From: an uncultured Ignavibacteria bacterium
GTDB lineage: Bacteria; Zixibacteria; MSB-5A5; DSPP01; RBG-1
NCBI GenBank assembly: GCA_964399055.1
Contig: CAYNPJ010000004.1
Location: 11,158 to 75,157 of the forward strand
Reading direction: 5' to 3'
Length of the DNA stretch: 64,000 bases
Shown: positions 236-63,100 of the stretch, in pieces
Layout: each line of letters begins with the position of its first letter
Position numbering within the stretch: the stretch's first letter is position 1
The notes under the pieces: generated by a model
The model's input: the letters and a program-made list of their open reading frames with translations, nothing else
Databases searched by the model: none
Told to the model about the DNA's origin: nothing
Program-made: the position numbers and the translations under genes

Positions 236-1474
236 TTAAGGTCTCACGACACCTAACTTCCTGAGCAATCTATTCTTACGATAATAAAGGCTTTCCAAAA
301 GTCCGTTTCCTGCCTGTAATGACAAGGAGACATTCAAATTATCAATCGCCCGCTCTACCAGTTTAAGCGCCTGCGGATACTGTCTAATGCGGTGCTCGTA
401 AAATTTGGCTAACTCCAAATAGGGCTCCAGGCAGAATCTATTATTCTCTGTGATTATTTGCCGCCAGATTGCTTCAGCCTTATCCCACTTTGCAGTCCGC
501 TTGTAGAGTCTTCCCAGCCAGAGAAGGCTGTCCATGAAAGAATCCTCGGAAGAGCCTTTCTCCTGAGATTTTTCCCAGCATAGAACAGCTCTCTCATACT
601 GGCCGGAGTAATAGAATTGCCGGCCCAAACTGAGCAAGTCCTCCGGATGTAATATTTCCAATTTTTCTGGTCTTTCCAAAATCTCACATAGATGAGCCAA
701 TAGACCAGCCATGGAGATAATGTCATATGCGTTATGCTCAGTAATAAGTTTAATTTTTTCTCTTTCCCCGCTGCGCAGGAAATCAAAATATGCCTGCGGT
801 ATCAGATAGCTGGGAATATCGAATTCTCTTGCCACTCCTAATATTTCTCTCTCTAAATTAGAGAGGCTGCAATCCTTGACTCTTCTCTTCCACACCCGCC
901 GGGCCGGAAAGAGCAAATCTAAGTGGCCCTCAAATTCCAGAGAGGCCTTGATGCGATTGAGTATGTATCTGGTCTTAAGAATGGGGATGTCGTAACCTTT
1001 GCCGTTATAGGTAACAATGTATGGATAGCTGGATAGCAACTCCGACAAATCGGCCAGCAAAGCTCTTTCCTCCCCATAATCCCGCATGAAAAACTGCCTC
1101 AAAACAAATTTATCAAGAGCAAAGTAGCCGACCCCCACCAGAAAGGGATGAGTGCCGGAGCCGCCCGCCAGGCCGGTAGTTTCGGTGTCTAAAAAGATGG
1201 TTTTGCTCAAATCTATTTCCTGCGAAAGCTGAGTTTTGGCTAAAAGAGTGATAGACCCGGAATCAGCGCTCAACAGGTCAGAAATAACCACCGACCCATG
1301 CTGGTAGGATGGTCTGTATTCCTTCTCAATGAGTACATATTCCCCCTTGGAATTAGAAATCACTCTACCATTCAGGAAATCAACCAGCGAAGAGTCCTTT
1401 TCCACCCTCTCTTTCTTTTCAGTTCTAATTAATCCCAGGCTCTTCAAACTTTGCAAGCGTTCCTGTAAATCCAT
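236..1474 (-). CDS. RNase H-like (DEDD-type, YprB/PF13482-like) predicted 3'-5' exonuclease fused to C-terminal TPR repeats
   Basis: FLDTETTGL exonuclease motif in the N half; TPR-like repeats (WLGRLYKRTAKWDKAEAIWRQ..., AKFYEHRIRQYPQALKLVERAI) in the C half; 5-nt gap to the upstream gene suggests an operon. Confidence 0.6.
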   Translation of the reverse strand: MDLQERLQSLKSLGLIRTEKKERVEKDSSLVDFLNGRVISNSKGEYVLIEKEYRPSYQHGSVVISDLLSADSGSITLLAKTQLSQEIDLSKTIFLDTETTGLAGGSGTHPFLVGVGYFALDKFVLRQFFMRDYGEERALLADLSELLSSYPYIVTYNGKGYDIPILKTRYILNRIKASLEFEGHLDLLFPARRVWKRRVKDCSLSNLEREILGVAREFDIPSYLIPQAYFDFLRSGEREKIKLITEHNAYDIISMAGLLAHLCEILERPEKLEILHPEDLLSLGRQFYYSGQYERAVLCWEKSQEKGSSEDSFMDSLLWLGRLYKRTAKWDKAEAIWRQIITENNRFCLEPYLELAKFYEHRIRQYPQALKLVERAIDNLNVSLSLQAGNGLLESLYYRKNRLLRKLGVVRP

Positions 1475-1478
1475 ACTT

Positions 1479-4412
1479 TTATCTCTTGAATTTATTTAGA
1501 ATTAATGCCAATTTCCCAGTTATGAAAGGGTGCTTCTCCTTCTCTTTCAATAGATTCAACTTGATTGCGTTTTCCATATTATCCGACCCCCCTAAAGCCT
1601 CAATTGTTGTTCCTTTCCCTCTCCAATTTTCTCTGTCATAAACCTGCCACAAGTAGTTACTAGCTGCCTGAGTTTTAGTTTTCCCCAGAGCTGATATGCA
1701 CAGAAGTCTCTTATCTCTTAACAGAGAATTTTCATATTCCCATTTCAGTTGCCCAACTGCTTTCTCTCCCAATTTACCTAATGCCTCCACTGCCGCCATC
1801 AGCACCGAGTAGTGCGGATCATCCAGAGCATAAATAAGATAATCCACTCCCCGCTCATCCTGCAGTTCCCCTAATGCATAGACCGAAGATTTTCTGACCA
1901 CTTCAACAGAATCAGATAACGCAAAAGCAACCCAGTTAAATGCGGAAGTATCTTTGGCATTTCCGATGGCCGTCAGAGCATATCCCCGCACCTGATAATC
2001 AGGATGATTGAGGATATCTATTAAATAGGGAACAGCGACAGTATCTTTCAGCTCACCCAATACCCGGCAGGCGTTCCTGAGCTTCCAATTATCTTCATTT
2101 TGCAATTCGCCTAATACTGAAGCGACCGGCAAAGTTGCCTCCGGAATTTTGCCTAATATATCCACCAGGGTTTGAATCTCTCTGGCATCTCTGGAATCAA
2201 GTTTCTTAACTAAATAAGGAATGGAATTTTCCTTCATCTCTCTCAGAGCCTGTTTTGCCGGCTCTACCCTATCCAAATGCTCCACATTAATGGCAGTTGC
2301 CTGGATAAAGAGTGAATCCACCAGCACTTTGAGGGATTCATTCTCCGGCTGAGTGGCAGTTTTCATTGCCTTTTCCCAGTCAGCCATATGAAAGGCCGGA
2401 AGGCCTGGCATTTTGAAATGGCGCTCAGTTGTGGATATTGTCTCAGGCTCAGAATAATATTCAGCCAAATCTTCTTCCTTCAAATCCAGCCCTATCCCCC
2501 ACTTTGAGCCAATCGACCACCAGGAGCCTTCTGAGCCATTGCCGGAATAATTATCATTTCCTTTCAAATCTAAAAACAAACCTATCGAGCCAAATTCCCT
2601 TCTGGGATTGCCATAGCCTCGAGTGTTGGATTTCTCTTTAGCGTAATAGCCATCATCCCCGGCCTGGTCAATCAAGATTCCGAAGCCATTTGCATTCCCT
2701 GCCCCTTGGGATAAGCCGTTGGCGTAATAATTATCATTTCCAGCTTTATCTAACAAAATCCCGGCTGAGTAATCATGCCCGCAACCCTGACCAACGCCAT
2801 TGACGCGATAAATGTCATCCCCGGCTGCATCGACTAAAGTGCCTAAAGTCATGTGCGTGCCGCAGCCCTGCGCATACTGAAAGCAGGAGTAGTAGTCATT
2901 TCCTTCTTTATCATACAGCCCTCCCCAGCCCCACCAGTAAGAGCTTCCCTGGCCGAAGATGTCCGCATTGTAGATGTCATTGCCGGAGTAGTCGAAGAGT
3001 AAACCAATACCGCCGGACATATAGGGCCTGATGCCATAGGCAAAACCCTGGGAAAGTGAGAGGTAGTGGTCTTTGTATCTTAAAATGTCCTTGTATTTCC
3101 CTCCGGCGAAGTAATTGTCGCTGCCCGATCTGTCAATCAACATCCCGCAGCCAGCCACAAAGCCGAAGCCCTGAGAGAAAAGCGCGCCATTATATGTATC
3201 CGTGCCTTCCAAATCAATCAATAGTCCCAGACCCCACCCTCCTGCTCCCTGCGTATAAGTGTCTCCGAAATATTTATCATCCCCCTTTCTGTCTATTAAT
3301 ACGCCGATTCCAAACAAACCTGAGCCCAGACTGAAATTCTTACCTATGTATGTATCATTTCCCTCTTCGTCAATGAGAATACTCCCACCAAAAAATCCCG
3401 AGGCAATGGCAAAATCAGACTTCGCTCTGTATATATCATCTCCGCTCAGATCAAGTATTGTTTGCATGCATACCAGAGAATCGTATTCCAGTTCATACAC
3501 GTCATCACCACCCAAATCAATAATCAAGGCAGGACTGCCATAGTAATAAGAACTACCGGTTCCACCAATTAAGATATCACCTATTTTAGTCTTGCCATGA
3601 AAAATGATATCATTCACTTCTTGCTTATTTTCCTCTCTCCACTTAGATCTGTGCGCCTGTTCTTCATTTTCGAAATTTATTGCGGCCTCACCAAGATAAG
3701 CACTTACAAACCACATCCAATGTATCCAATCGAATTTTTCACGGAACTTTGAAATTTGTTTGGCCAGTTCTTCCTCATACTTCTGATTCTGGTCCAGTTT
3801 CTCTGGTGTCTTAAATTGATCATTCACATCTTCCAGAAGTAAAATTGGGGCATTATGCCTTAAGAACATAAAAAGAGAGTCCTGTGGAGGTCGAACATTC
3901 CACACATGTTGCATATATAGAAATAATCGCAGTATGTAATTTGTATCCTTTCCCGTAACCTTCTTGAGGATCTTGTTAGCTTTAAAGAGGTCAGGATACT
4001 CACGCTCAGAGGGCACTCCTTCTAACTCTGTTACATCCCAAGGGTGAGGTTTACGCCTGGGTATTATCTCATTATATTTTTCATGCAAATCTAGTGCTGG
4101 TTCCCAAATAGGATGCGTTAGAAATAGGTCTAACCTTATGTCAGTCATACCACCAAAATTGTAAACAATATCCTTTAGTTCCAGTAAACTCGATATAGTG
4201 AATCCCGGTGTGTGCATAAGGCTATCCATAAGTTTTAGCCTGAAATCGTCCACCTCCGTATAATCATTCCTGAAAGTCAAATCCGCAGGCTTCATCAAAA
4301 GACATTTCAGCCCCAGAGCCAAGGCCGAATCAACTTGAGCGTTATACTTGCTCTGCGCAGACGCAATTCCAAAAAGAAATAGACCGAGCAGAGCAATCGA
4401 CACTTTCCTCAT
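1479..4412 (-). CDS. large secreted multi-domain protein: signal peptide, novel ~270-aa N-domain, ~15 tandem beta-roll/RTX-like 'G-x-L-x-D-x-x-G-N/D-D-x-Y' repeats, C-terminal PBS-lyase-type HEAT repeats
   Basis: ORF 1479..4490 opens with a TTG; an internal ATG at 4412 gives the classic signal peptide MRKVSIALLGLFLFGIASAQS; repeats such as LIDLGGDDVY, LIDEEGNDTY, LIDRKGDDKY, LLDKAGNDNYY, LIDQAGDDGYY; HEAT-like repeats (HPDYQVRGYALTAIGNAKD, DPHYSVLMAAVEALGKLG). Confidence 0.7.
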   Translation of the reverse strand: MRKVSIALLGLFLFGIASAQSKYNAQVDSALALGLKCLLMKPADLTFRNDYTEVDDFRLKLMDSLMHTPGFTISSLLELKDIVYNFGGMTDIRLDLFLTHPIWEPALDLHEKYNEIIPRRKPHPWDVTELEGVPSEREYPDLFKANKILKKVTGKDTNYILRLFLYMQHVWNVRPPQDSLFMFLRHNAPILLLEDVNDQFKTPEKLDQNQKYEEELAKQISKFREKFDWIHWMWFVSAYLGEAAINFENEEQAHRSKWREENKQEVNDIIFHGKTKIGDILIGGTGSSYYYGSPALIIDLGGDDVYELEYDSLVCMQTILDLSGDDIYRAKSDFAIASGFFGGSILIDEEGNDTYIGKNFSLGSGLFGIGVLIDRKGDDKYFGDTYTQGAGGWGLGLLIDLEGTDTYNGALFSQGFGFVAGCGMLIDRSGSDNYFAGGKYKDILRYKDHYLSLSQGFAYGIRPYMSGGIGLLFDYSGNDIYNADIFGQGSSYWWGWGGLYDKEGNDYYSCFQYAQGCGTHMTLGTLVDAAGDDIYRVNGVGQGCGHDYSAGILLDKAGNDNYYANGLSQGAGNANGFGILIDQAGDDGYYAKEKSNTRGYGNPRREFGSIGLFLDLKGNDNYSGNGSEGSWWSIGSKWGIGLDLKEEDLAEYYSEPETISTTERHFKMPGLPAFHMADWEKAMKTATQPENESLKVLVDSLFIQATAINVEHLDRVEPAKQALREMKENSIPYLVKKLDSRDAREIQTLVDILGKIPEATLPVASVLGELQNEDNWKLRNACRVLGELKDTVAVPYLIDILNHPDYQVRGYALTAIGNAKDTSAFNWVAFALSDSVEVVRKSSVYALGELQDERGVDYLIYALDDPHYSVLMAAVEALGKLGEKAVGQLKWEYENSLLRDKRLLCISALGKTKTQAASNYLWQVYDRENWRGKGTTIEALGGSDNMENAIKLNLLKEKEKHPFITGKLALILNKFKR

Positions 4413-4531
4413 AGAAGGACCTGCCGAAAATAATCCCCCTCCTGAACAAATGTCAACTTTTTTCTCTAAAAAGCAAAAGCCCTCTGACAATCGCCAGAGG
4501 GCCCGCCCTCCTATACTTAGCCCACCCCTCT

Positions 4532-5968
4532 CTAAGTCAGCTGATATTTAGCCATTCTATCTCTTAGAGTGTTCCTGCTCACCCCTAAAATCTTGGCCGA
4601 GCGCAGTTGATTGGACTCAGTCTGCTTCAAAACTTTTTCTATCAGCGCTTTTTCTAAGGCCGAGGAGATGTGGTCATAGATATGCCCGTCGGAATTGTCC
4701 ATAATCTTGCCGAAGACCGGTTCTAAAACTTCGGAAAAAAGCTTGTAGTAATCCTGCTGAATCTTCTGGAAGTCAAAGGGGATTCTCTCCCTGGTGTCGG
4801 AATACAGAGGGAAATGCTCCGGCGCCAAGATTTCTCCCTTGCACATCACCACTGCGGTGTGAATGTTGTTCTCTAATTCGCGCACGTTGCCGGGCCAGTG
4901 GTATCTGCCCAGCATCTCTTGAGCTTCCTTGGAGACGGACCTTATCTCTTTCCCCACCTGCGGGGCGTATTTTTTGAGGAAGTGTTTGGCTAAAACCGGT
5001 ATGTCGACTTTTCTTTCCCTCAAGGGAGGTAAATATATGGAGACCACTTTCAGACGGTAGAACAAATCTACCCTGAATTTGTTGTCTTTTATCAGCTCGA
5101 CTAAACTTTTATTAGTGGCAGCGATTACCCGGACATCCACCTTTATGGTCTCATTCCCCCCCACCCGCTCGAACTCCTGTTCTTGAAGGACGCGTAAGAC
5201 TTTGCTCTGGGTGACTAAGGACATGTCGGCGATTTCGTCCAAGAAAATAGTGCCATTGTGGCATTGTTCGAATTTTCCAATCTTGCGGGCATAGGCGCCG
5301 GTGAAGGCCCCTTTTTCATGGCCGAATAATTCTGATTCAAGTAAAGTCTCTGGCAGGGCCGCGCAGTTGACTGACAAAAAAGCCTTGTCGGCCCGGCGCG
5401 AATTGCGGAAAATGGCCCGGGCTACTAATTCTTTGCCAGTTCCGGATTCCCCCATGATTAATACTGAAGCGTCGGTTTTGGCAACCTGTCCAATTAATTT
5501 GGCTATCTCTACTATTTCCGGAGACTGGCCGATTATTTCATTTTCGCTAAACTCTCCGGGTTTGCCTCCGTTAGGGGCACCAGGCTTGCCCAGGTGTTTT
5601 TCCGAGAGGGCTTTGCGGACTTCACCAGCCACCTTTTCTAAGGTAAAAGGCTTAGTGATATAATCAAAAGCCCCCTCTTTCATAGCTTCGATGGCCGATT
5701 CAGTGGAGACGTAGCCGGTCAGGATAATGACCGGGACCTTGCCGTCAGTGGTCTTTATCTTTCTTAAGACTTCCAAGCCGGACATTCCCGGAAGATTCAA
5801 GTCTAAAAGAACTACGTCGGGCTGAAGTTCCGGTAGTTTGGCTAAGGCATCTTCCCCTTTTTCAAAGGAGAGCAGGCTGAATTCAGGAGGGGCTAAAAAC
5901 TGGGAAAGGGTCCCGCTTACTGCCGGGTCGTCATCAATCAGAAAGACCTTGGGAGTCTGCAGAGTCAT
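4532..5968 (-). CDS. sigma-54-dependent Fis-family response regulator (NtrC-like enhancer-binding protein), orphan with no adjacent kinase
   Basis: Receiver domain (VFLIDDDPAV...LLDLNLPGMSG); Pro/Gly-rich linker (GKPGAPNGGKPG); AAA+ motifs ESGTGKELVARAIF and GAFTGA; C-terminal HTH (KILGVSRNTLRDRMAKY). Confidence 0.9.
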   Translation of the reverse strand: MTLQTPKVFLIDDDPAVSGTLSQFLAPPEFSLLSFEKGEDALAKLPELQPDVVLLDLNLPGMSGLEVLRKIKTTDGKVPVIILTGYVSTESAIEAMKEGAFDYITKPFTLEKVAGEVRKALSEKHLGKPGAPNGGKPGEFSENEIIGQSPEIVEIAKLIGQVAKTDASVLIMGESGTGKELVARAIFRNSRRADKAFLSVNCAALPETLLESELFGHEKGAFTGAYARKIGKFEQCHNGTIFLDEIADMSLVTQSKVLRVLQEQEFERVGGNETIKVDVRVIAATNKSLVELIKDNKFRVDLFYRLKVVSIYLPPLRERKVDIPVLAKHFLKKYAPQVGKEIRSVSKEAQEMLGRYHWPGNVRELENNIHTAVVMCKGEILAPEHFPLYSDTRERIPFDFQKIQQDYYKLFSEVLEPVFGKIMDNSDGHIYDHISSALEKALIEKVLKQTESNQLRSAKILGVSRNTLRDRMAKYQLT

Positions 5969-6089: not shown

Positions 6090-6127
6090 CTGTATAAAAC
6101 AGAAAGCGAGCCCTTTTGAGCTCGCTT
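6090..6127 (-). terminator. rho-independent terminator after PEP-CTERM gene 1
   Basis: Minus-strand reading AAGCGAGC-TCAAAAGG-GCTCGCTT (8-bp stem) followed by TCTGTTTTAT. Confidence 0.6.
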
Positions 6128-6158: not shown

Positions 6159-6881
6159 TTACTTCTTACGTCTTAATCTGGCAAAACCGGCTGCACCTAA
6201 GAGGCCGCTGCCAAAGAGAAATAGAGTGGCCGGTTCAGGCACTTCAGGCGGAGTCTCACACAGGTCGGTGCCGTAAACAAATTTGACGTTCCTGATTTTG
6301 GCGCTGGGGTCAAAATAGGAAGAAATGCCGCTCAAGGTGAATACTACCTGATTCTGGATTAGAGCGTTACTTCCAGTAACCGCGGCATTCCCGGAAAATA
6401 AATTATCTGCGGCAGAGGTGATACCGTATTGCAATCCGTCAGGCGAATCAGGGCCTTGCAGATTAGGGCCCGGGAACCTGTCCCCTGACCCGAACAGGCC
6501 AAAGCCGGCAGAGCTTATGCCGTAGCGACCCAATCCATAGTTAGGAAAGCTGGAACTGTACCGAAAAGCCCACTCTCCGCCTACGTTGCCTCCATTAGAA
6601 GGGCCGTAGAATACAGATGAGCCTCCGCCCAGAGCGGCAGAGACCCTGCTTAGAGATGGATTGTACCTAATGTCGAAGAATACCGCGGTAAGCACTTCAT
6701 TGGGTGCCGTGACGTCAGCTGAGGAAGTGTTAGTCAGGGTGATTTGCAGATTTCCACTGACCACAGCAAATATAGCGCTGGCCGCCAGACTGCCACTGGA
6801 CCAGTTGTAAGTGAAAGGCACAGCCAAAGCCGTACCGCTGATTAATAGGGAAAGTAAAATCCCTGCTTTTATGAGCCTCAT
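6159..6881 (-). CDS. PEP-CTERM domain secreted protein (exosortase substrate)
   Basis: N-terminal signal peptide; C-terminal VPEPATLFLFGSGLLGAAGFARLRRKK (PEP motif, TM helix, basic tail); AGGAGG RBS. Confidence 0.9.
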   Translation of the reverse strand: MRLIKAGILLSLLISGTALAVPFTYNWSSGSLAASAIFAVVSGNLQITLTNTSSADVTAPNEVLTAVFFDIRYNPSLSRVSAALGGGSSVFYGPSNGGNVGGEWAFRYSSSFPNYGLGRYGISSAGFGLFGSGDRFPGPNLQGPDSPDGLQYGITSAADNLFSGNAAVTGSNALIQNQVVFTLSGISSYFDPSAKIRNVKFVYGTDLCETPPEVPEPATLFLFGSGLLGAAGFARLRRKK

Positions 6882-7019
6882 TCTCTCCTCCTGCTGGTTA
6901 GCATCCTGTTTATCTTTTTTTTGTTTCAGGGAGCAAGACTCCGCTTGAGTCCCGCTCTTTTTGGTTGTCTGTCTTAGTTATAAATCCTCATGCCATCCTG
7001 TGGCGTAAATCTTCCAGAC

Positions 7020-7658
7020 TTACTTTTTCCGGCGAAGCTTCGAAAATCCGGCTGCGCTTAGGAGTCCGCTGCCTAAGAGTAACATGGTGGCCGGCTCAGG
7101 AATTTCAGGTGTACGTCCTGGACCATACCAAGCAGTGTTTCCGTCAATCTCTTCTCTGTAGTAACCCCAGTCGAGGTGAACCAGGTATTTGGTAGTGGCT
7201 GGATTCAAATTGCATCCAGTGCCATTGAAGTCTGCCACCAGAACATTGGTGCAATCCCCTTTATGAATATAGTCGACTGGTGACCCGGTATGGGTTCCGA
7301 AAACACCTTTGGGTCTTTCGTAGCCGCCGTTGAAGTCCCAGTTGGCTATGGTAGTAACGCCGGCTGTCGTACCCCACCCAGGAACCGCAGCTTCCAAATC
7401 TGGTCCTTGATTACCGTTCTCCAAATAGACCGCAAGGGCTTTAATTCCACCGACGTTAATGATACCGCCAATTGGGGCTCCTGCATCAACGCAGACCTGG
7501 AAGGTCCAGACATTGGCAGGACCCTGAGTGCCCGTTACTGAAACAAAGCTCAAAGTCCCTGCTGAAGCGTTCAGACTTGGCCAGGGGTCAGCGTTTACGG
7601 TTGCTGCTGTCAAAACCAAAACCAGTCCCAGGATTGCCAGCAGAGTTAACTTCTTCAT
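7020..7658 (-). CDS. PEP-CTERM domain secreted protein (exosortase substrate)
   Basis: Start moved to the internal ATG at 7658 (MKKLTLLAILG..., signal peptide) preceded by AAGGAGG; C-terminal IPEPATMLLLGSGLLSAAGFSKLRRKK. Confidence 0.88.
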   Translation of the reverse strand: MKKLTLLAILGLVLVLTAATVNADPWPSLNASAGTLSFVSVTGTQGPANVWTFQVCVDAGAPIGGIINVGGIKALAVYLENGNQGPDLEAAVPGWGTTAGVTTIANWDFNGGYERPKGVFGTHTGSPVDYIHKGDCTNVLVADFNGTGCNLNPATTKYLVHLDWGYYREEIDGNTAWYGPGRTPEIPEPATMLLLGSGLLSAAGFSKLRRKK

Positions 7659-7719
7659 TGATTCCTCCTTAAAGATTTGAATTGGTTTCAAGTTATAATT
7701 CTTCATGCAGAATTAAATC

Positions 7720-7737
7720 AGCAACCGTTATGCCAAT
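7720..7737 (-). promoter_or_regulatory. sigma-54 (RpoN) promoter, -24 TGGCAT / -12 TTGCT, driving the PEP-CTERM genes
   Basis: Reverse complement of 7721-7737 is TTGGCATAACGGTTGCT, matching TGGCAC-N5-TTGCW in spacing and the GG/GC dinucleotides; about 60 nt upstream of the ATG at 7658. Confidence 0.7.
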
Positions 7738-7769
7738 GGCCAGAACTAACCTTCAAAGAGCTAACCTAT

Positions 7770-7782
7770 TGTCATTCTGACA
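7770..7782. promoter_or_regulatory. inverted repeat TGTCA-N3-TGACA, candidate enhancer (UAS) for a sigma-54 activator
   Basis: Perfect IR about 35 bp upstream of the -24 element; a second IR CTGTC-N9-GACAG lies at 7888-7906. Confidence 0.35.
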
Positions 7783-7887
7783 GTTAATTTAAACAACTTA
7801 AAGGCTGACCCCATGCCATTTGTTTGTTTTCCCGACAACCTAAAAACTCATCCTAAGATAAACTCATACAATACATTATATTCCAAC

Positions 7888-7906
7888 TGTCAGGAAAACC
7901 GACAGC
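7888..7906. promoter_or_regulatory. inverted repeat CTGTC-N9-GACAG, second candidate UAS in the divergent PEP-CTERM/exosortase intergenic region
   Basis: Read directly; shares the TGTC/GACA half-sites with the 7770-7782 repeat. Confidence 0.3.
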
Positions 7907-8036
7907 TCTTAAAATACCTCTTCATCTCACTTCAGATTTGTTGCAAGAAGATGCATGATTTACTGAGCAAATCCTCTTGATATGGACTGACTCTTCTCTT
8001 GCCATTTCCTTCCGATAGAATTAATTACAACCGTTG

Positions 8037-8897
8037 ATGGAGACAAAGACTCTGGTTTTTAAACGGCTCTTACGACCCGAAATCCTGTTAATTGGGTTAG
8101 TCCTGGCCTTAATCTATTTTCCTGTCTTTGTAGAGCTCTGGGACGACTGGGAAAGGGATTCTAATTATTCCCACGGCTTCTTAGTGCCTTTGGTCTCCTT
8201 GTTCCTGCTCTGGAAAAAGCGTCGGGAGCTAAGCCAGATTCCTGCTAAACTCTCACCTTTCGGCTTGGCCATCATTGCTGCCGGGCTCTTTCTGCTCATA
8301 GTTGGAACTGCCGGAGCTGAGTATTTTTCGGTCCGACTCTCCTTTGTGGCTCTGATCTTTGGACTGGTCTGGTACTTTGGGGGGGATAAACTGGCAAAAA
8401 GCGCTGCGGTGCCAATCTGGTACCTGGTCTTGGCCATTCCAGTTCCTTATGTGATTTACTTTGCCATGGCTTTTCCCCTTCAGCTTCTGGCCACTAAAGC
8501 GACTGTGGTCCTGCTCCACCTGATGGGCCTACCTTCCATCCGGCAGGGGAACATCATACATCTTCCGGGCTACAGTCTGGAAGTAGTGGAAGCCTGTTCC
8601 GGCTTGCGCTCTTTAATGTCCCTCTTAGCCCTGTCCGGCGTCTATGCCTATTTAACCCAGAAGACTAAACTGAGAAAATTCATTCTCTTTGCCTCTGCGG
8701 TACCGATTGCTCTGGTTGCCAATATCTTTCGAATCATAATCACTGCCTTAGGAGCTTACTTAATCTCACCTAAAATGGCTGAGGATTTCCTGCATGAGCT
8801 TTCCGGCCTGGTGGTCTTCATCATATCTTTTATCTGTCTGTTCATCTTAGGGGAAATATTAAAGCGCATCGGGGCCAAGAAACCGGCTGTCTCTTGA
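8037..8897 (+). CDS. exosortase (PEP-CTERM-processing transpeptidase, Xrt family)
   Basis: Polytopic membrane protein; conserved active-site context EVVEACSGLRSLMS (ACSG Cys motif) and IANIFRII Arg motif; adjacent to two PEP-CTERM genes; the ORF opens at TTG 8034 but the ATG at 8037 is used here. Confidence 0.85.
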   Translation: METKTLVFKRLLRPEILLIGLVLALIYFPVFVELWDDWERDSNYSHGFLVPLVSLFLLWKKRRELSQIPAKLSPFGLAIIAAGLFLLIVGTAGAEYFSVRLSFVALIFGLVWYFGGDKLAKSAAVPIWYLVLAIPVPYVIYFAMAFPLQLLATKATVVLLHLMGLPSIRQGNIIHLPGYSLEVVEACSGLRSLMSLLALSGVYAYLTQKTKLRKFILFASAVPIALVANIFRIIITALGAYLISPKMAEDFLHELSGLVVFIISFICLFILGEILKRIGAKKPAVS

Positions 8898-9859: not shown

Positions 9860-9975
9860 AACGCTAGATTTTCAATAGCATCAATTCGCTTTCGAGCATT
9901 GTGCAACTCCTTGCACATTCTCTGCTAAACCCTACAGGTTTAAACCCCGACCTCGGATTCTTTGTCACAAAATCT

Positions 9976-10097: not shown

Positions 10098-10113
10098 TGG
10101 CAGTAGTTTTGCT
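10098..10113 (+). promoter_or_regulatory. sigma-54 promoter TGGCAG-N5-TTGCT upstream of the sugar transferase
   Basis: Plus-strand TGGCAGTAGTTTTGCT with exact GG-N10-GC spacing; lies inside the nominal ORF 9901..11127, whose N-terminal ~75 codons are low-complexity and AT-rich, so it is probably a leader. Confidence 0.6.
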
Positions 10114-10188
10114 ATTGACATAAGTCAAGTTGTAGATGCCGTAAGTTTAACACCCCTTAACAGAGATCGGAAGGTTGGGATAATAGAA

Positions 10189-11127
10189 TTGATAGAGATT
10201 AATATAAGTACAGCTAAACCTGCAGAATCCGGGCAGAAAATTTCTGCTCGCCGGCTAAATCCTGCAGCCAACGGTAGCAATGGCAATGGAAACGGGTCTG
10301 GCCGTCAGAATGGCAGCAACGGCAATGGCTCTGCGCTGACGTCTCGCTATTCCGAACAGGTATTATCCAACGTTTATTTAGCTTCTTACGTTTTCTATAC
10401 CTTTCTGAGAGGCCTGGATGGCGCTCAGCCGGAGGTAAAATTCACGACCCGTCTGAGGTTATCCTGCAAAAGAGTCCTGGATGTATTACTCTCCGGAATG
10501 GGCTTGATTCTGCTCTCGCCACTCTTTTTAATGCTGGCGGTATTAATCAAACTAGATTCAGAGGGGCCGGTTTTTTACAAACAAGAGAGAATCGGGCAGA
10601 ACCGGCGCAAAGGTGACCGGAGACGCTTTCAGTTTGATATGAGCAGCGACCGGCGCTTAAACCGTAACCGGCGACGCGAAGATTATTTTGGGGTGCCGTT
10701 CACAGTTTATAAATTCAGGACCATGCACAAGGACGCCGAGAAAAAGTGTGGGCCTATCTGGGCTACCAAAGACGACCCCCGGGTGACCAGAATTGGCCGT
10801 CTGCTGCGTAAGACCAGATTGGATGAGCTTCCTCAGCTCTGGAATGTGTTTAAAGGGGAAATGTCCCTGGTGGGTCCCCGACCGGAAAGACTTTATTTTG
10901 TCCGCAAATTAGCTCCCCAGGTCAGGAATTATACCATGAGACTTACTTTCAAGCCCGGCATAACCGGACTGGCTCAAGTCGAAAAAGGGTATGACTCCAG
11001 CGTGGGTGACGTTAATAAGAAATTAAAATACGACTTACTATATATTAACAACTGGAGCCTGTGGAAAGATATAAAGATTCTGGTTAAGACCACTCTGGTT
11101 GTGATAACCGGAAAGGGTGCTTTTTAA
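10189..11127 (+). CDS. polyprenyl-phosphate (undecaprenyl-phosphate) sugar phosphotransferase, 'bacterial sugar transferase' family (PglC/WbaP C-domain/EpsB-like); start uncertain
   Basis: KRVLDVLLSGMGLILLSPLFLMLAVLIKLDSEGPVFYKQERIG...YKFRTM...VGPRPE...GITGLAQV. The ORF track starts at GTG 9901, but a sigma-54 promoter at 10098 and no in-frame ATG before 10498 suggest TTG 10189 or ATG 10498 as the start. The product contains an unusual ~29-aa Arg-rich insertion. Confidence 0.75.
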   Translation: MIEINISTAKPAESGQKISARRLNPAANGSNGNGNGSGRQNGSNGNGSALTSRYSEQVLSNVYLASYVFYTFLRGLDGAQPEVKFTTRLRLSCKRVLDVLLSGMGLILLSPLFLMLAVLIKLDSEGPVFYKQERIGQNRRKGDRRRFQFDMSSDRRLNRNRRREDYFGVPFTVYKFRTMHKDAEKKCGPIWATKDDPRVTRIGRLLRKTRLDELPQLWNVFKGEMSLVGPRPERLYFVRKLAPQVRNYTMRLTFKPGITGLAQVEKGYDSSVGDVNKKLKYDLLYINNWSLWKDIKILVKTTLVVITGKGAF

Positions 11128-14393: not shown

Positions 14394-16514
14394 ATGTCAG
14401 TTCTCTTTGCCGTAATCGCCAGCCTGACCTTAATCTTCGCCGTAGTAGTACTCCTCCGCAATCCTAAAGAGCTTTCCTTTTGGGCTTTTTTTCTCACCGG
14501 CCTATTCTGGGTCTCAATTTTAGCCGGCATTCTGTTTTCACTGCGCTGGGAGTTTCCTCTCTGGGGCTCTGCTCTTCTGGCTCTGGGGATTAGTTTCCTG
14601 CCCTCCCAGGGGACTTTTTTCAGTTTCTGCTTTGCCAGAGAAAATGTCCGGGAACTGTTAAAGCGCTGGCAGTGGTTTCTGGGGCTGACTTACGCCTTCA
14701 GTATAGTTTTTTTCATCTTAGCCCTGCAGGGGAAAGTTTACGCCTTAGGAGTCGGGGAAGTCGAAGGAAAACTGCTATTGGCCTATACCAATCCGGGACG
14801 GCTCTTTCTGGCTTTCCTCTTCTTGACTACTCTGGTCAGCTTAGTCAATTTGGAAAACACTTATCGTCTATCCAAGGGTAAAGAGCGCTCCCGCTTAAAA
14901 TTGCCTCTCACTCTGTCGGTCTCTGCTTACGCCTGGTTGATTTATTCTCTGACCAGTTCCTTCGTATTGGGCTATCTGCAATACTGGGTTTTGCAGGTGG
15001 GTTTTCTCTTAATCTTGGCGGCTCTGATTTCAACCGGCGTTTATCAGCTCAAACAGAGCACTCATCTGCCGGCAATCTATATGGGGCGGAGACTGGCTTA
15101 TTCCTCAGCCGCTTTTGTGCTGGTGGGACTCTACTTAGTCTTCATCGGCCTGGTGGCCAGTTTCATACCCAAACTGGGCGGGAATTTGCAGATTTTCATC
15201 TCGGTCTTAGCCGCCCTGATGGTCTTGATTGTACTGGTAATCTTGGCCTTCTGGGAGACCTGGAGAAAGAGGCTGGAGCATTTGCTGGAAAGGCTTCTCT
15301 ATCCGGGTAAATTCGATTTTCGCGAGGAGTGGAAGAGATTTTCTGAAAATATCTCGGCTCTGCTGGATTCGGGTGAAATTCAAAAAGAGACCGACAAGGT
15401 CATCCGGGAGAATTTGCGGGTCGACCAGTTGGCAGTATATTCCCGCACCAGCAGGAACAGCGATTTGAGAATCACGCATCACTCCTCAGGCAACTATGAC
15501 CAGCCGCCGGCCCTGCCGCCGGAGGACCCTTTCTGGGGCTGGCTTCTGCGCTATGGGGAGACAGTAGAGAAGAGGCAGATAGAAAGGCTGTTGGAAACTT
15601 ATGCCAGCGGCTCTCAGATTAAACATATTTTAGAGCAGACTAAAGGTGAGGTTATAACTCCCTTGATCGCCAACCGGGAGCTGGAAGGGATGATTATCCT
15701 CTCAGACAAGGAAGAGCAGGAGGCTTATACTAACGAAGATTTCGATCTGTTAAATGCCATCTCCGGACAGGCCGCTCTAGCCCTGTTGAATGCCCGGGTA
15801 GGGCAGGAACTGATTTTAAGCAAGGAGATGGAGTCCTTTCACAAATTTGCGGCCTTTGTGGTTCATGACCTGAAGAATTCCATCTCCATGCTCTCTATGC
15901 TTTTGGCCAATGCCCAGGGGAATCTGAATAACCCTCAGTTTCTGGCCAGCGCCTTGGAGACGGTGGACCAGGCAGTCAAAAAAATGAAGACCCTGGCAGA
16001 TAAACTCTCCTCCCCGCCGGAAGGCAGCACCTTAGTGTTAAGGCAAACGGATTTGAATCAGGTCTGGCAGATGGCGGCCCGGGATTTAAAATTGGAGCTG
16101 CTGCCGAACATAAAAGTGGAGTGGCAGTTAGGCGAGTTACCTCTGGTCAACTGCGACCAGGTTCAGTTGGAGAAGGTCTTTCAGAATCTGTTTTTGAATG
16201 CGGTGGAGGCTATGCCTAAGGGAGGTTCGATTAGAGTTACCACTCAATTCTTTGAGAATCAGAATCATCTTCCGGAAGTACGGATGAGCGTCCGGGATAA
16301 CGGAGTCGGCCTAAGCCCGGAATATCTGCGCACCCGTTTATTCCAGCCCTTTGCCTCCACCAAGAAGTCCGGCTTGGGCATAGGTCTGTTTCAGTCTAAG
16401 GAGATTGTTGAACAACACGGAGGCAGAATCTGGGTGGAGACCTGCGAGGGCAAAGGAACCGTTTTTTACATCACCCTGCCAGTGAAAGCAACAGCAGCAC
16501 CGGTAAACAAGTAG
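14394..16514 (+). CDS. prsK: PEP-CTERM system sensor histidine kinase (PrsK family)
   Basis: About 8 N-terminal TM helices, a GAF-like domain, HisKA (FAAFVVHDLKNSIS) and HATPase_c (GLGIGLFQSKEIVEQHGGRIWVE); immediately upstream of the sigma-54 regulator. Confidence 0.8.
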   Translation: MSVLFAVIASLTLIFAVVVLLRNPKELSFWAFFLTGLFWVSILAGILFSLRWEFPLWGSALLALGISFLPSQGTFFSFCFARENVRELLKRWQWFLGLTYAFSIVFFILALQGKVYALGVGEVEGKLLLAYTNPGRLFLAFLFLTTLVSLVNLENTYRLSKGKERSRLKLPLTLSVSAYAWLIYSLTSSFVLGYLQYWVLQVGFLLILAALISTGVYQLKQSTHLPAIYMGRRLAYSSAAFVLVGLYLVFIGLVASFIPKLGGNLQIFISVLAALMVLIVLVILAFWETWRKRLEHLLERLLYPGKFDFREEWKRFSENISALLDSGEIQKETDKVIRENLRVDQLAVYSRTSRNSDLRITHHSSGNYDQPPALPPEDPFWGWLLRYGETVEKRQIERLLETYASGSQIKHILEQTKGEVITPLIANRELEGMIILSDKEEQEAYTNEDFDLLNAISGQAALALLNARVGQELILSKEMESFHKFAAFVVHDLKNSISMLSMLLANAQGNLNNPQFLASALETVDQAVKKMKTLADKLSSPPEGSTLVLRQTDLNQVWQMAARDLKLELLPNIKVEWQLGELPLVNCDQVQLEKVFQNLFLNAVEAMPKGGSIRVTTQFFENQNHLPEVRMSVRDNGVGLSPEYLRTRLFQPFASTKKSGLGIGLFQSKEIVEQHGGRIWVETCEGKGTVFYITLPVKATAAPVNK

Positions 16515-16523
16515 TTTGAGAAA

Positions 16524-17885
16524 ATGGACCGGGATAAGATTCTCATTGTAGACGACGAAGAGGGAATCCGCACTCAACTTGCCTGGGCTCTGTCTGCGGA
16601 ATACCGAGTCTTGCAGGCTGACTCGGCAGCGCCAGCCTTGGATATAGTCCGGGCAGAGAACCCGAATCTAATCTTGCTGGATTTAGCCTTAAGCACCACT
16701 CAGGCCGAGCCGGATGGATTGGAACTCTTGGGAACTTTTCTGGAGAAAGACCCCTTTTTGAAAGTCATTATGATCACCGGCCATGATGAAAAGCCCAATG
16801 CTTTGGAGGCCATTAAAAAGGGGGCTTACGACTTTTACGCCAAACCCATCGACTTAGATGAAATTAAAATCATCATAAAGCGGGCTCTCTACATCCAGAA
16901 ATTGGAAAAAGAGAACCGGCAATTAGCTGAAGAGTTAGAGAGTAAACAAAAATTTGAGGAAATCATTGGCACCTCAGAGAAGATGGAGCAGATTTACCGG
17001 ACCGTTTCCAGGGTTGCCCCCACTGATGCCACAGTTCTGGTAGTGGGAGAATCCGGCACCGGCAAGGAACTGATAGCCAGAGCCATTCACAGCCTGTCAC
17101 CCCGTAGTTCCAAGCCTTTTGTCACCATCAACTGCGGGGCTATTCCGCCCAATCTTTTGGAATCCGAGCTCTTTGGTCACGAAAAGGGAGCCTTTACTGA
17201 CGCCCACATCCAGCGCAAGGGGAGGTTCGAAATGGCTGAAGGCGGGACAATTTTCTTAGATGAAATCGGCGAACTCTCTCTGCCCCTGCAGGTCAAGATT
17301 CTGAGGTTTTTGCAGGAAAAAGAGATTGAACGAGTGGGAGGCCGGGAGCCAATTTACGTGGATGCCAGGGTTCTGGCGGCGACAAACAAGGCGCTGCTGG
17401 AAGAGGTCAAGCTGAAAACCTTCAGAGAAGACCTTTATTACCGGCTCAGTGTAATTACCATTAATCTTCCCTCTTTAAAAGAGAGGGGTCAGGACATATT
17501 GCTTTTGGCCCACACCTTTTTGAGCCGTTTTTCGGCAGAATACAACAAAAGCAAGCTGACTTTTAGTCCTGCGGCCGAGAGGGCCCTTTTAGCCTATCCC
17601 TGGCCCGGCAACGTGCGCGAGCTGGAGAACAAAGTCAAACGGGCGGTAATTTTAAGCCTGGGAAATAAGATTACTCCCTATGATTTGGGACTGGAACAAG
17701 AGTCCGGAGGCAAGAGGCCAACCCTGCAGGAGCTGCGGGAGCAAGTAGAGAGTCAGTTCATTCAGGAAACGCTCCAGCGCCATCAGGGGAACGTCACCAA
17801 CGCTGCTAAAGAATTAGGGGTTAGCCGGACTACTCTTTATGATATCATGGAGAAGTACAAGATTAAAAGAGAGTCTTTGGATTAA
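16524..17885 (+). CDS. prsR: PEP-CTERM-box sigma-54-dependent response regulator (PrsR family)
   Basis: Receiver domain (ILIVDDEEGIR...LLDLAL); AAA+ motifs GESGTGKELIARAIH and GAFTDA; C-terminal HTH. Confidence 0.85.
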   Translation: MDRDKILIVDDEEGIRTQLAWALSAEYRVLQADSAAPALDIVRAENPNLILLDLALSTTQAEPDGLELLGTFLEKDPFLKVIMITGHDEKPNALEAIKKGAYDFYAKPIDLDEIKIIIKRALYIQKLEKENRQLAEELESKQKFEEIIGTSEKMEQIYRTVSRVAPTDATVLVVGESGTGKELIARAIHSLSPRSSKPFVTINCGAIPPNLLESELFGHEKGAFTDAHIQRKGRFEMAEGGTIFLDEIGELSLPLQVKILRFLQEKEIERVGGREPIYVDARVLAATNKALLEEVKLKTFREDLYYRLSVITINLPSLKERGQDILLLAHTFLSRFSAEYNKSKLTFSPAAERALLAYPWPGNVRELENKVKRAVILSLGNKITPYDLGLEQESGGKRPTLQELREQVESQFIQETLQRHQGNVTNAAKELGVSRTTLYDIMEKYKIKRESLD

Positions 17886-27348: not shown

Positions 27349-27381
27349 TGAAGGCCCGGCTTATTAAACTGTCACTCTTAA
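27349..27381 (-). terminator. hairpin plus U-tract (AAGCCGGGC-CTTCAGT-GCTCGGCTTTTTTG) between fmdB and clpB
   Basis: 8-bp stem with one G-U pair, 7-nt loop and six T; ends about 25 nt before the clpB start codon. Confidence 0.5.
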
Positions 27382-27410
27382 ATCGAATCATCCCCTTTTT
27401 ATTTTCTCTG

Positions 27411-27647
27411 TCATTTTTTTTCGGGACTTGAACCCGTCTCCTCTTTGGCTTTTTTCTTATAAGAATCACTTCGGTAGTCCGTAATGTAGAATCCTGAGCC
27501 TTTGAAGAGCAGGCCCGCCCCGGGCGAGATTATCCTCTCCGGCACTCCCTTGCATTCCGGGCAGCTTCTGACCGGCTCCTCGCTCATCTTCTGAAAGACT
27601 TCAAAGCGGTGCCCGCAGCCGGAGCAGAGATACTCGTAGGTGGGCAT
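27411..27647 (-). CDS. FmdB-family zinc-ribbon protein (putative regulatory protein)
   Basis: MPTYEYLCSGCGHRFEV...CPECKG CxxC...CxxC. Confidence 0.8.
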   Translation of the reverse strand: MPTYEYLCSGCGHRFEVFQKMSEEPVRSCPECKGVPERIISPGAGLLFKGSGFYITDYRSDSYKKKAKEETGSSPEKK

Positions 27648-27901
27648 TACTCCTCCTTGAAGAGGCTTCTGCCGGATTCCTCGTAGTATTTGATTTTTCC
27701 TTCGGTCAAATCCTGCAGGGCTTTGACCGTCACCTTGGTCTTCTCGTCTAAGACCGGGTCGACCAAGTCCGGGGTAATCATGGCCGCCTCCTTTTGCCTT
27801 TTGAGCTTCTGGTTTATGGCCCTTGCTCTTTTGGAGGCAATCAACACCGCCTGGTATCGGTTGAGTGGCAATTTTTCTAACTCTCCCATCTGTTTAATCA
27901 T
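27647..27901 (-). CDS. rpoZ: DNA-directed RNA polymerase subunit omega
   Basis: LPLNRYQAVLIASKRARAIN omega signature; 84 aa. Confidence 0.8.
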   Translation of the reverse strand: MIKQMGELEKLPLNRYQAVLIASKRARAINQKLKRQKEAAMITPDLVDPVLDEKTKVTVKALQDLTEGKIKYYEESGRSLFKEE

Positions 27902-27923
27902 TGATACTCCCTTTCCTGGTCAT

Positions 27924-30409: not shown

Positions 30410-30450
30410 TTCATGTTCCTCCTTTCTGTCATTTTTGCACTACTATGAAA

Positions 30451-30465
30451 GCAAGTAGTATGCCA
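30451..30465 (-). promoter_or_regulatory. sigma-54 promoter TGGCAT-N5-TTGCT directly upstream of hsp20
   Basis: Reverse complement of 30451-30465 is TGGCATACTACTTGC(T); same -24/-12 hexamers as the PEP-CTERM promoter; contains the ACTACT/AGTAGT inverted repeat. Confidence 0.6.
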
Positions 30466-30667
30466 CAGAGTGTCTGGCCGGTGTGAAGACCTATAACTTA
30501 ATATGTATAAGTAACTTACGGCCAATTTATACCTTGAATGATATTTTGGAATAGTTTTTCATAACTGCCATTTTGACTTAATCAGTAGAATTTGACAGAA
30601 AAATAATGCCGAATTGAATGACTTACTGTATTTCTGGCAGAGGCAAGCAAAAGATCTGATATGAAGT

Positions 30668-62752: not shown

Positions 62753-63100
62753 GAGCCAGAGCAGGCCGTAAGCCGAGTTCTGTTTGGGTCATCATCTATC
62801 TGGGCCGACTGTCGCCAGCCGGCTCAAGCGGCCTACCCGGAAGTAATAGCGGAACAGGCTCTTCCTTCTTCCTTATTTGGCCTTGCTCCAGGTGGGGTTT
62901 GCCAGCCCCCGATATCACTATCGGGGCGGTGGTCTCTTACACCACCCTTTCACCCTTGCCCCGAGCTAGTCGGGGTGGTCTGGTCTCTGTGGCACTTTCC
63001 ATATTCTTGCGAATCCCTGGGATTACCAGGCGCCCTGCCTTAGGAGCTCGGACTTTCCTCCCCGATGACTATCGGGGCGATGACCTGGTCTGCTCCGGCT
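62753..63100 (-). ncRNA. rnpB: RNase P RNA, bacterial type A
   Basis: Minus-strand sequence carries GGAAAGTCCGAGCTCC, AAGGCAGGGCGCCTGGTAATCCCAGGG, GTGCCACAGAGACCAGACC, AGGGTGAAAGGGTGGTGTAAGAGACCACC, CACCTGGAGCAAGGCCAAATAAGG, GGGTAGGCCGCTTGAGCC and ACAGAACTCGGCTTAC; P1 pairs the 5' GCCGGAGCAGACC with the 3' GGCCTGCTCTGGC. Ends are approximate to about 10 nt. Confidence 0.93.

Follow-up and report, generated by a model that had tools for sequence, protein, structure and literature searches.

Large non-coding regions precede the PEP-CTERM genes of Proteobacteria, and two motifs within them were described by Haft et al. 2006 (PMC1569441). Motif 1 is 17 nt long, carries TTTACA at its 3' end and is sometimes repeated; motif 2, also of 17 nt, is a sigma-54 motif situated 71 +/- 38.5 nt before the ATG, and the spacer between the two measures 62.8 +/- 10.6 nt, with a range of 32-92 (PMC1569441). 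The phylogenetic profile of the DNA motif matches PrsK, PrsR and PrsT, and in 2006 the motif was found only in Proteobacteria (PMC1569441). In 2023 sigma-54 control was shown for pepA of Aquincola tertiaricarbonis, which has a -24/-12 promoter (TGGCAC / CTGCTT) with a mapped start and a predicted upstream enhancer, and whose transcription is RpoN1-dependent and lost in an rpoN mutant (PMC9850573). Here we describe a related arrangement in a stretch of 64,000 nt (hereafter the window) from an uncultured bacterium placed by GTDB in the Zixibacteria (contig CAYNPJ010000004.1, positions 11,158 to 75,157). In it, a 378-bp spacer separates the exosortase gene xrtA from the first of two PEP-CTERM genes, which run divergently from xrtA and which we call the cargo genes. 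Judging from the sequence and its conservation, a genuine sigma-54 promoter very probably lies in this spacer, together with two activator sites upstream of it, and drives the PEP-CTERM gene, which encodes a secreted surface protein. We put at about 75% the probability of the fuller reading, in which this promoter of the cargo genes is enhancer-dependent and is activated by the response regulator PrsR through the two sites, which are boxes of 17 nt.

The promoter and the genes on either side of it are as follows.

7736..7720, minus strand: sigma-54 -24/-12 element TTGGCATAACGGTTGCT, with GG at 7734/7733 and GC at 7722/7721
7659..7709, minus strand: predicted 5' untranslated leader of about 51 nt, a length that follows from the predicted start, with a Shine-Dalgarno sequence AAGGAGG at 7670..7664
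7020..7658, minus strand: PEP-CTERM cargo gene, 212 aa (TIGR02595, 23.9 bits against a cut-off of 16)
8037..8897, plus strand: exosortase XrtA, divergent (TIGR03109, 211.4 bits against a cut-off of 208)

With exosortase A adjoining two PEP-CTERM proteins and genes for exopolysaccharide (EPS), the locus is an XrtA/PEP-CTERM sorting system. The -24/-12 element, which without its leading T reads TGGCATAACGGTTGCT (7735..7720, minus strand), has a GG-N10-GC spacing that is exact, and its 3' end lies 61 nt from the ATG at 7658, on the same strand. An earlier note, made from the letters of the window alone, had placed a sigma-54 motif at 7721-7737, about 60 nt upstream of a corrected PEP-CTERM start at 7658. 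The motif is real, although those coordinates are one base high, and both the distance and the corrected start are borne out. The ATG at 7658 is preceded by AAGGAGG, and a public gene call gives the identical 212-aa protein, which makes the longer open reading frame from 7706 an over-extension. On the usual -12 spacing, transcription is predicted to start at about 7709, so that the start of the longer frame would fall at approximately +4 of the predicted transcript. A near-perfect 20-bp palindrome, TAATTCTGCATGAAGAATTA (7696..7715), straddles the predicted start and is not conserved in relatives. The 212-aa protein itself belongs to a small family of 15 proteins.

Sequences of this form are scarce in the window. 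With both strands of the 64 kb searched, TGGCAY-N5-TTGCW matches twice against 0.19 expected, while the looser TGGCA-N6-TTGCW matches three times against 0.33 expected, a count that none of 100 shuffles reached. All three of the latter matches are intergenic, intergenic DNA making up 6.6% of the window, and each is aimed at a gene start some 40-75 nt downstream. On a scoring matrix built from 18 known Escherichia coli sigma-54 promoters, which themselves score 9.3-23.4 bits (Table 1, PMC2831329), the cargo promoter reaches 16.3 bits, inside the range of the known promoters and second in rank in the window. A lone matrix match is not decisive; the case for the cargo promoter is carried by its position and its conservation. 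A consensus scan found no sigma-70-type consensus on the cargo strand of the spacer. Rfam gave no match in the spacer, and its sole match in the window is the bacterial RNase P RNA class A (62754..63096, minus strand, 289.6 bits).

Related loci, designated by L-numbers, were fetched from metagenomes and read-archive assemblies with XrtA and the cargo protein as queries; a search of genome contigs with XrtA found no close genome and, as relatives, just two distant ones (34% and 57% identity). Six orthologous spacers, that of the window and those of five relatives, were aligned (alignment A5) and have an overall pairwise identity of 0.54. The GGCA and TTGCT columns are invariant across the six, the 17-nt motif as a whole stands at 0.80 against 0.54 for the spacer, and the region of the Shine-Dalgarno sequence and ATG stands at 0.93. 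In every one of the 12 non-identical homologous upstream regions that were fetched (the window, L016, L009, L013, L014, two L005 paralogues, L017, L018, L020, L006 and L007), a -24/-12 element is found 68-90 nt ahead of the ATG. Among these are regions whose cargo homologues are merely 41-48% identical (L017, L018 and L020) and others in which the cargo genes adjoin a more distant xrtA (L006 and L007). The assignment of a sigma-54 promoter to the PEP-CTERM gene, as the earlier note had it, is upheld by these invariant columns and by this fixed position.

Upstream of the promoter, the aligned spacers share two boxes, each 17 nt long and conserved, with the pattern TGTCG-N8-T(T/G)ACA, accompanied in the window by two further elements.

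7837..7821, minus strand: proximal PEP-CTERM box TGTCGGGAAAACAAACA, candidate PrsR enhancer site, GTC...ACA invariant in A5
7904..7888, minus strand: distal PEP-CTERM box TGTCGGTTTTCCTGACA, core of CTGTC-N9-GACAG (7887..7905), TGT...ACA invariant in A5
7878..7866, minus strand: conserved block TATAATGTATTGT (within GGAATATAATGTATTGTATG) between the boxes, pairwise identity 0.82
7770..7782, both strands: inverted repeat TGTCA-N3-TGACA, unique in the window and lineage-specific

The centres of the two boxes are 67 bp apart, 84 nt lie between the proximal box and the 17-nt sigma-54 motif, and the distal box has a pairwise identity of 0.72 against 0.54 for the whole spacer. Copies of the boxes in the orthologues include TGTCGAATTTCTTTACA, TGTCGATAAAGTTTACA, CGTCGAGAAAATTTACA and TGTCAGCGGAGTTTACA, the last three being copies of the proximal box. 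A pair of inverted repeats had been proposed in the earlier note as the enhancer sites, and only half of the pair survives. The repeat CTGTC-N9-GACAG, given there as 7888-7906 and so again one base high, is unique in the window, conserved and of enhancer type. Its supposed companion, TGTCA-N3-TGACA, is present exactly as described but is rejected as an enhancer site, being not conserved in the five orthologous regions and having an identity (0.49) under the spacer mean (0.54). The true second box, TGTCGGGAAAACAAACA, had been missed.

Between the boxes, the block TATAATGTATTGT is the most conserved stretch of the spacer apart from the ribosome-binding site, and on the plus strand it carries a weak IHF-like CAA-N4-TTA core. 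Cores of this kind, at about 7763..7772 and about 7867..7876, are too weak as matches to be claimed. Two further candidates in the spacer were set aside: TGCA-N6-TGCA as a degenerate sigma-54 site, its spacing in the cargo spacer being 9 and not 10, and a 55-aa open reading frame (7813..7980) as a coding region, the gaps in the orthologous alignments not being multiples of three.

A plasmid of Vibrio alfacsensis annotated with prsK, prsR and prsT, of which 41 kb were examined, provided a proteobacterial example. One of its regions consists of the box TGTCGATATATTTTACA, 72 nt, the promoter element TGGTATGCATATTGCT (TGGTAT-N5-TTGCT), 71 nt and then the ATG of a PEP-CTERM gene; another has the box TGTCAGGAATTTTTACA, 93 nt and the element TGGCTTGGAAATTGCT, ahead of another secreted protein. 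Both Vibrio boxes have the same form as those of the window. By this likeness of sequence, we identify the window boxes as the same element as the proteobacterial PEP-CTERM box, and the spacer as the cis-regulatory region of Haft et al. 2006.

The regulators from which an activator of this promoter might be drawn are encoded in the same window.

14394..16514, plus strand: histidine kinase PrsK (TIGR02916, 334.7 bits against a cut-off of 300)
16524..17885, plus strand: PrsR, the PEP-CTERM-box response regulator (TIGR02915, 571.3 bits against a cut-off of 502.6)
4532..5968, minus strand: orphan response-regulator enhancer-binding protein with REC, AAA+ (with GAFTGA) and HTH_8

PrsR and the orphan, which the earlier note had named as the candidate activators, both combine REC, Sigma54_activat and HTH_8, with E-values for PF00158 of 8.1e-72 and 2.4e-71, respectively. 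The orphan reaches 401 bits on TIGR02915, below the family cut-off of 502.6. The helix-turn-helix of the window PrsR (GNVTNAAK...TLY) is closer to that of the Vibrio PrsR than is that of the orphan (SNQLRSAK...TLR), a likeness that weakly favours PrsR as the protein at the boxes. Named homologues of PrsR (best 76% identity) all come from Zixibacteria bar one labelled candidate division KSB1, and named homologues of the housekeeping protein SMC (37-41% identity) are all from Zixibacteria, the closest relatives of SMC, at 67%, being metagenome proteins. PrsR of Zixibacteria is already annotated by NCBI, so that on the side of the protein there is nothing new. The strand that encodes the orphan regulator also carries, downstream of it, genes for a 1003-aa HEAT-repeat protein and an RNase-H-like/TPR protein (236..4490; 2129..6296 in L005), which are 61% and 74% identical, respectively, between the window and L005.

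In the mechanism that we propose, sigma-54 RNA polymerase would sit on TTGGCATAACGGTTGCT as a closed complex, with the start of transcription near 7709. Phosphorylated PrsR, with PrsK as its partner kinase, would bind the two 17-bp boxes, which lie about 120 and 187 bp upstream of the predicted start (7837..7821 and 7904..7888), and would open the promoter through DNA looping and ATP hydrolysis. The resulting transcript would cover the 212-aa gene, pass by partial read-through of a conserved hairpin into a second cargo gene, of the XDD4 family, and end at a terminator.

6931..6957, minus strand: intercistronic hairpin between the two cargo genes, 11-bp stem without a U tract, fold z-score -3.4
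6159..6881, minus strand: second cargo gene, an XDD4-family PEP-CTERM protein (NF045504, 220 bits; TIGR02595, 25.5 bits)
6127..6104, minus strand: intrinsic terminator after the cargo genes, a ten-pair stem followed by a T run

The stem of the hairpin is kept in L016 despite changes in its sequence. The XDD4 gene is probably co-transcribed with the first cargo gene, on one transcript with partial attenuation. A sigma-54 promoter of its own, at TGGCATGAGGATTTAT (6994..6979), was considered and rejected: it has no GC at -12, and a 5-nt insertion interrupts it in L016. The corresponding place in L005 (8640..8950) is organized differently, the second cargo gene there being a paralogue of the first and forming its own terminator-separated unit, with the promoter TGGCATATTGGTTGCT, a proximal box of its own and an imperfect distal box ending in TTTACT. 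The window equivalent of that unit is the XDD4 gene behind the hairpin, beside a remnant TGGCAT (6994..6989) without a -12 element.

A further conserved element links the cargo spacer with a second sigma-54 promoter, situated ahead of the operon of the EPS sugar transferase.

7942..7955, both strands: palindrome-like element TGCAAGAAGATGCA, with TGCAA-N4-TTGCA as consensus; the cargo -24 GG lies about 207 bp downstream
9902..9915, both strands: perfect palindrome TGCAACTCCTTGCA in the leader of the sugar transferase; the -24 GG at 10099 lies about 183 bp downstream
10098..10113, plus strand: second sigma-54 -24/-12 element TGGCAGTAGTTTTGCT, ahead of the sugar-transferase operon, matrix score 13.3 bits

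These are the only two TGCAA-N4-TTGCA sites in the window, and they are oriented alike relative to their promoters. The copy in the cargo spacer is conserved in L005, L009, L013, L014 and L016, that in the sugar-transferase leader in L004 and L022, and L006, L007 and L017 have similar palindromes, 90-120 bp from the promoter on its upstream side (positions in relatives include 3561..3574 in L004, 1064..1077 in L009, 3603..3616 in L006, 470..483 in L007 and 332..345 in L017). The palindrome is absent from the 41-kb Vibrio locus and is not part of the published PEP-CTERM box; in this clade it recurs upstream of the sigma-54 promoters of both cargo and EPS genes. Shared by the cargo and sugar-transferase promoters, it is an addition to the known system, a modest novelty, and the orphan regulator (4532..5968) is a candidate for the protein that binds it.

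The TGGCAG/TTGCT variant that the earlier note had seen in the sugar-transferase leader, at 10098-10113, is real and is conserved in L004 and L022, in which TGGCAGTAGTTTTGCT falls inside a 30-nt island, with one mismatch, in an otherwise diverged leader. For the sugar transferase (TIGR03025, 304.3 bits against a cut-off of 295.55), the 408-aa open reading frame from the GTG at 9901 is too long: its relatives, of 317-320 aa, start at the equivalent of about 10174..10189, and the GTG with which the gene of L004 starts is replaced by AAG in the window. Going by these comparisons, the gene likely starts near the TTG at 10189, and the GTG at 9901 is probably not a start. Among the genes that follow the sugar transferase on the same strand are prsK and prsR. 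The palindrome also stands upstream of this sigma-54 promoter, with prsK and prsR following on the same strand. We offer as a speculation, and one that we consider rather improbable, that in this Zixibacteria-like lineage PrsR at the boxes and the orphan at the palindrome may both act on the cargo promoter, in a sigma-54 cascade or feed-forward loop. If this were so, one regulator would license matrix synthesis together with PrsKR, which would then turn on the cargo.

The third of the strong sites belongs to a small heat-shock gene.

30465..30450, minus strand: separate sigma-54 promoter TGGCATACTACTTGCT of hsp20, ending 40 nt before the ATG (30409)

This occurrence of TGGCAT/TTGCT had been reported in the earlier note and is genuine (30450..30465): it has the top matrix score in the window, 20.2 bits, and is conserved in L011 and L012, whose similarity to the window sets in precisely at the motif. 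A distinct conserved island with CTGCCAG ... TGGCAG arms lies at about 30560..30640, which is 100-170 nt upstream of the motif, and the hsp20 spacer (30410..30667) contains neither a PEP-CTERM box nor a TGCAA palindrome. No activator gene adjoins hsp20. CIRCE (controlling inverted repeat of chaperone expression), sought as an alternative heat-shock operator, is absent. Just downstream, dnaK has a sigma-70-like TTGACG-17-TAAAAT, and in the 575-bp gap between clpB and dnaK (27349..27923) are two small genes that the 110-aa list of open reading frames had missed, encoding RNA polymerase omega-like and FmdB-type zinc-ribbon proteins, both of which are called in L022 (PF01192 and PF09723). A precedent for the site at 30450..30465 is E. 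coli ibpB, a small heat-shock gene with a sigma-54 promoter (PMC2831329, citing Kuczynska-Wisnik et al. 2001). It resembles hsp20 in being a gene for a small heat-shock protein read from such a promoter, and differs in its organism and in its upstream element.

Several observations weigh against a PrsR-activated sigma-54 promoter, and they bear on different rivals to it. One rival is that the motif arose by chance, or serves for binding without acting as a promoter, and that the cargo gene is read from an unrecognized promoter of the sigma-70 type. As a lone match the motif is not significant, for 16.3 bits is attained by two or three of the 20 versions of the window made by mononucleotide shuffling. 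Moreover, a site of similar score, TGGCTGAAATCTTGCT (33498..33519, plus strand, 15.5 bits), probably itself a product of chance, occurs antisense inside a gene for a 929-aa TolB/Omp85-like protein, and the conserved block between the boxes includes a TATAAT-like hexamer (7877..7872). Chance does not, however, account for a position kept in 12 diverged homologous regions or for motif columns that do not vary in a spacer whose identity is 0.54; the second base of the hexamer, an A, is not conserved, and the scan of the cargo strand gave no sigma-70 consensus, so that we give this explanation very little credence. The earlier note had joined the cargo genes, the EPS operon and hsp20 in one small RpoN regulon with a common activator. 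Three strong -24/-12 sites in 64 kb, all intergenic, correctly oriented and conserved in relatives, count in favour of such a regulon. Yet common use of sigma-54 does not imply a common activator, and sigma-54 regulons are normally divided among dedicated activators. The hsp20 gene lies 22 kb away among housekeeping genes, has its own upstream island in place of the box and the palindrome, and has in ibpB an independent heat-shock precedent (PMC2831329). A regulon shared by hsp20 and the cargo genes is thus not supported, and the three-part regulon appears quite unlikely.

The identity of the activator is a finer matter, since a role for the orphan, whether alone or with PrsR and whether at the TGTCG boxes or at the palindrome at 7942..7955, is compatible with the PrsR mechanism and does not exclude it. 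Two points bear on the choice. The orphan has the canonical GAFTGA and is always found beside cargo genes, directly downstream of them in the window, in L005 (87% identity) and in L013 (82% identity), and it could be the true activator or a co-activator. The sigma-54 contact loop of PrsR (around residue 220), on the other hand, reads GAFTDA and not GAFTGA, the form that the orphan and the Vibrio PrsR share. The palindrome adds to the orphan's case, being conserved and standing, at each of its two window sites, about 180-210 bp upstream of a sigma-54 promoter in the same relative orientation; similar palindromes are closer, at 90-120 bp, in L006, L007 and L017, and no TGTCG box was seen in these three. 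In the other direction, the boxes match a proteobacterial motif that co-occurs phylogenetically with PrsR (PMC1569441), as well as those of a Vibrio plasmid that carries prsR and, in the 41 kb examined, no such palindrome. The orphan, furthermore, is the one of the two that falls under the PrsR family cut-off and has the less Vibrio-like helix-turn-helix. The altered loop does not argue against PrsR, because it is the majority form of the clade and a listed, tolerated variant: GAFTDA or GSFTDA is present in 100 of the 120 top PrsR homologues, mostly labelled Zixibacteria, and looks clade-wide, while GAFTDA is listed among the variants expected to leave an enhancer-binding protein competent for activation and is present in one Desulfovibrio vulgaris enhancer-binding protein with an assigned regulon (PMC4641369). 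For these reasons GAFTDA is ruled out as the mark of an inactive PrsR. Activation by the orphan, alone or with PrsR, is on balance improbable.

Other points against the PrsR mechanism concern the company that it keeps and the form of its sites. No rpoN was found among approximately 50 scanned proteins of the 64-kb window; its presence in the genome we infer from the two enhancer-binding proteins. No PrsT (TIGR02917) was found among the 30 window proteins scanned with NCBIfam, the remaining proteins having been scanned with Pfam only, and the sole TPR match in the Pfam scan is a weak TPR_2 in 236..1474; PrsT is often unlinked. The two boxes of the window end in CTGACA and AAAACA, not in the TTTACA with which boxes end in L005, L009, L013 and L016, and the spacer, at 84 nt, falls towards the top of the 32-92 nt that were published. 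In the literature we found no demonstration of direct binding of PrsR to the box, even for Proteobacteria.

How far the arrangement departs from described ones can be judged from three comparisons. The NtrC-type enhancers of glnAp2 form a pair of palindromic sites, each of 17 bp, which precede a sigma-54 promoter by about 100-140 bp. The cargo spacer is similar in having two dyad-symmetric 17-bp sites upstream of a -24/-12 element and, as candidate activator, a protein with REC, AAA+ and a Fis-type helix-turn-helix; it differs in its half-sites, TGT...ACA in place of TGCACC...GGTGCA, in the greater separation of its sites (67 bp from centre to centre) and in the regulon concerned. Aquincola pepA, likewise a PEP-CTERM gene, has a promoter of the -24/-12 type and a predicted upstream enhancer; that case is experimental and betaproteobacterial, with an upstream region of nearly 85 nt, whereas ours is argued from sequence alone and has a 378-bp spacer with two boxes.

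The closest counterpart is the region of Haft et al. 2006, with which the window shares an extensive non-coding region ahead of a PEP-CTERM gene, a 17-nt upstream motif present twice, a spacer inside the published range (84 nt here), a sigma-54 motif at a comparable distance from the ATG (61 nt here), and the proximity of PrsK/PrsR, XrtA and EPS genes, motif 1 being compared here through its published description and the Vibrio boxes. The differences are the Zixibacteria-like host, the lack of a PrsT found in the window, the CTGACA and AAAACA ends of the boxes and the GAFTDA of PrsR; the additions are the TGCAA-N4-TTGCA palindrome, which is conserved, and another enhancer-binding protein, which is syntenic. 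The interpretation in the earlier note was thus partly supported, right in substance and concerned with a known system. The present analysis gives exact sites, has the gene start at 7658 and not at 7706, and identifies the real second enhancer site. By itself the finding opens no new biological question. The control arrangement is known in kind (PMC1569441; PMC9850573), and what is new, a host outside Proteobacteria and the palindrome, is modest; as far as we could find, the conserved cis element has no earlier description in a Zixibacteria-like lineage. Its practical value is as a search pattern with which metagenome-assembled genomes can be screened for exosortase cargo genes and the regulon that they form. 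Comparison confirms that a distant uncultured phylum, too, uses the arrangement of PEP-CTERM box and sigma-54 promoter, the sequence of the box being almost unchanged, and the code by which PrsR recognizes DNA would therefore be old and stable.

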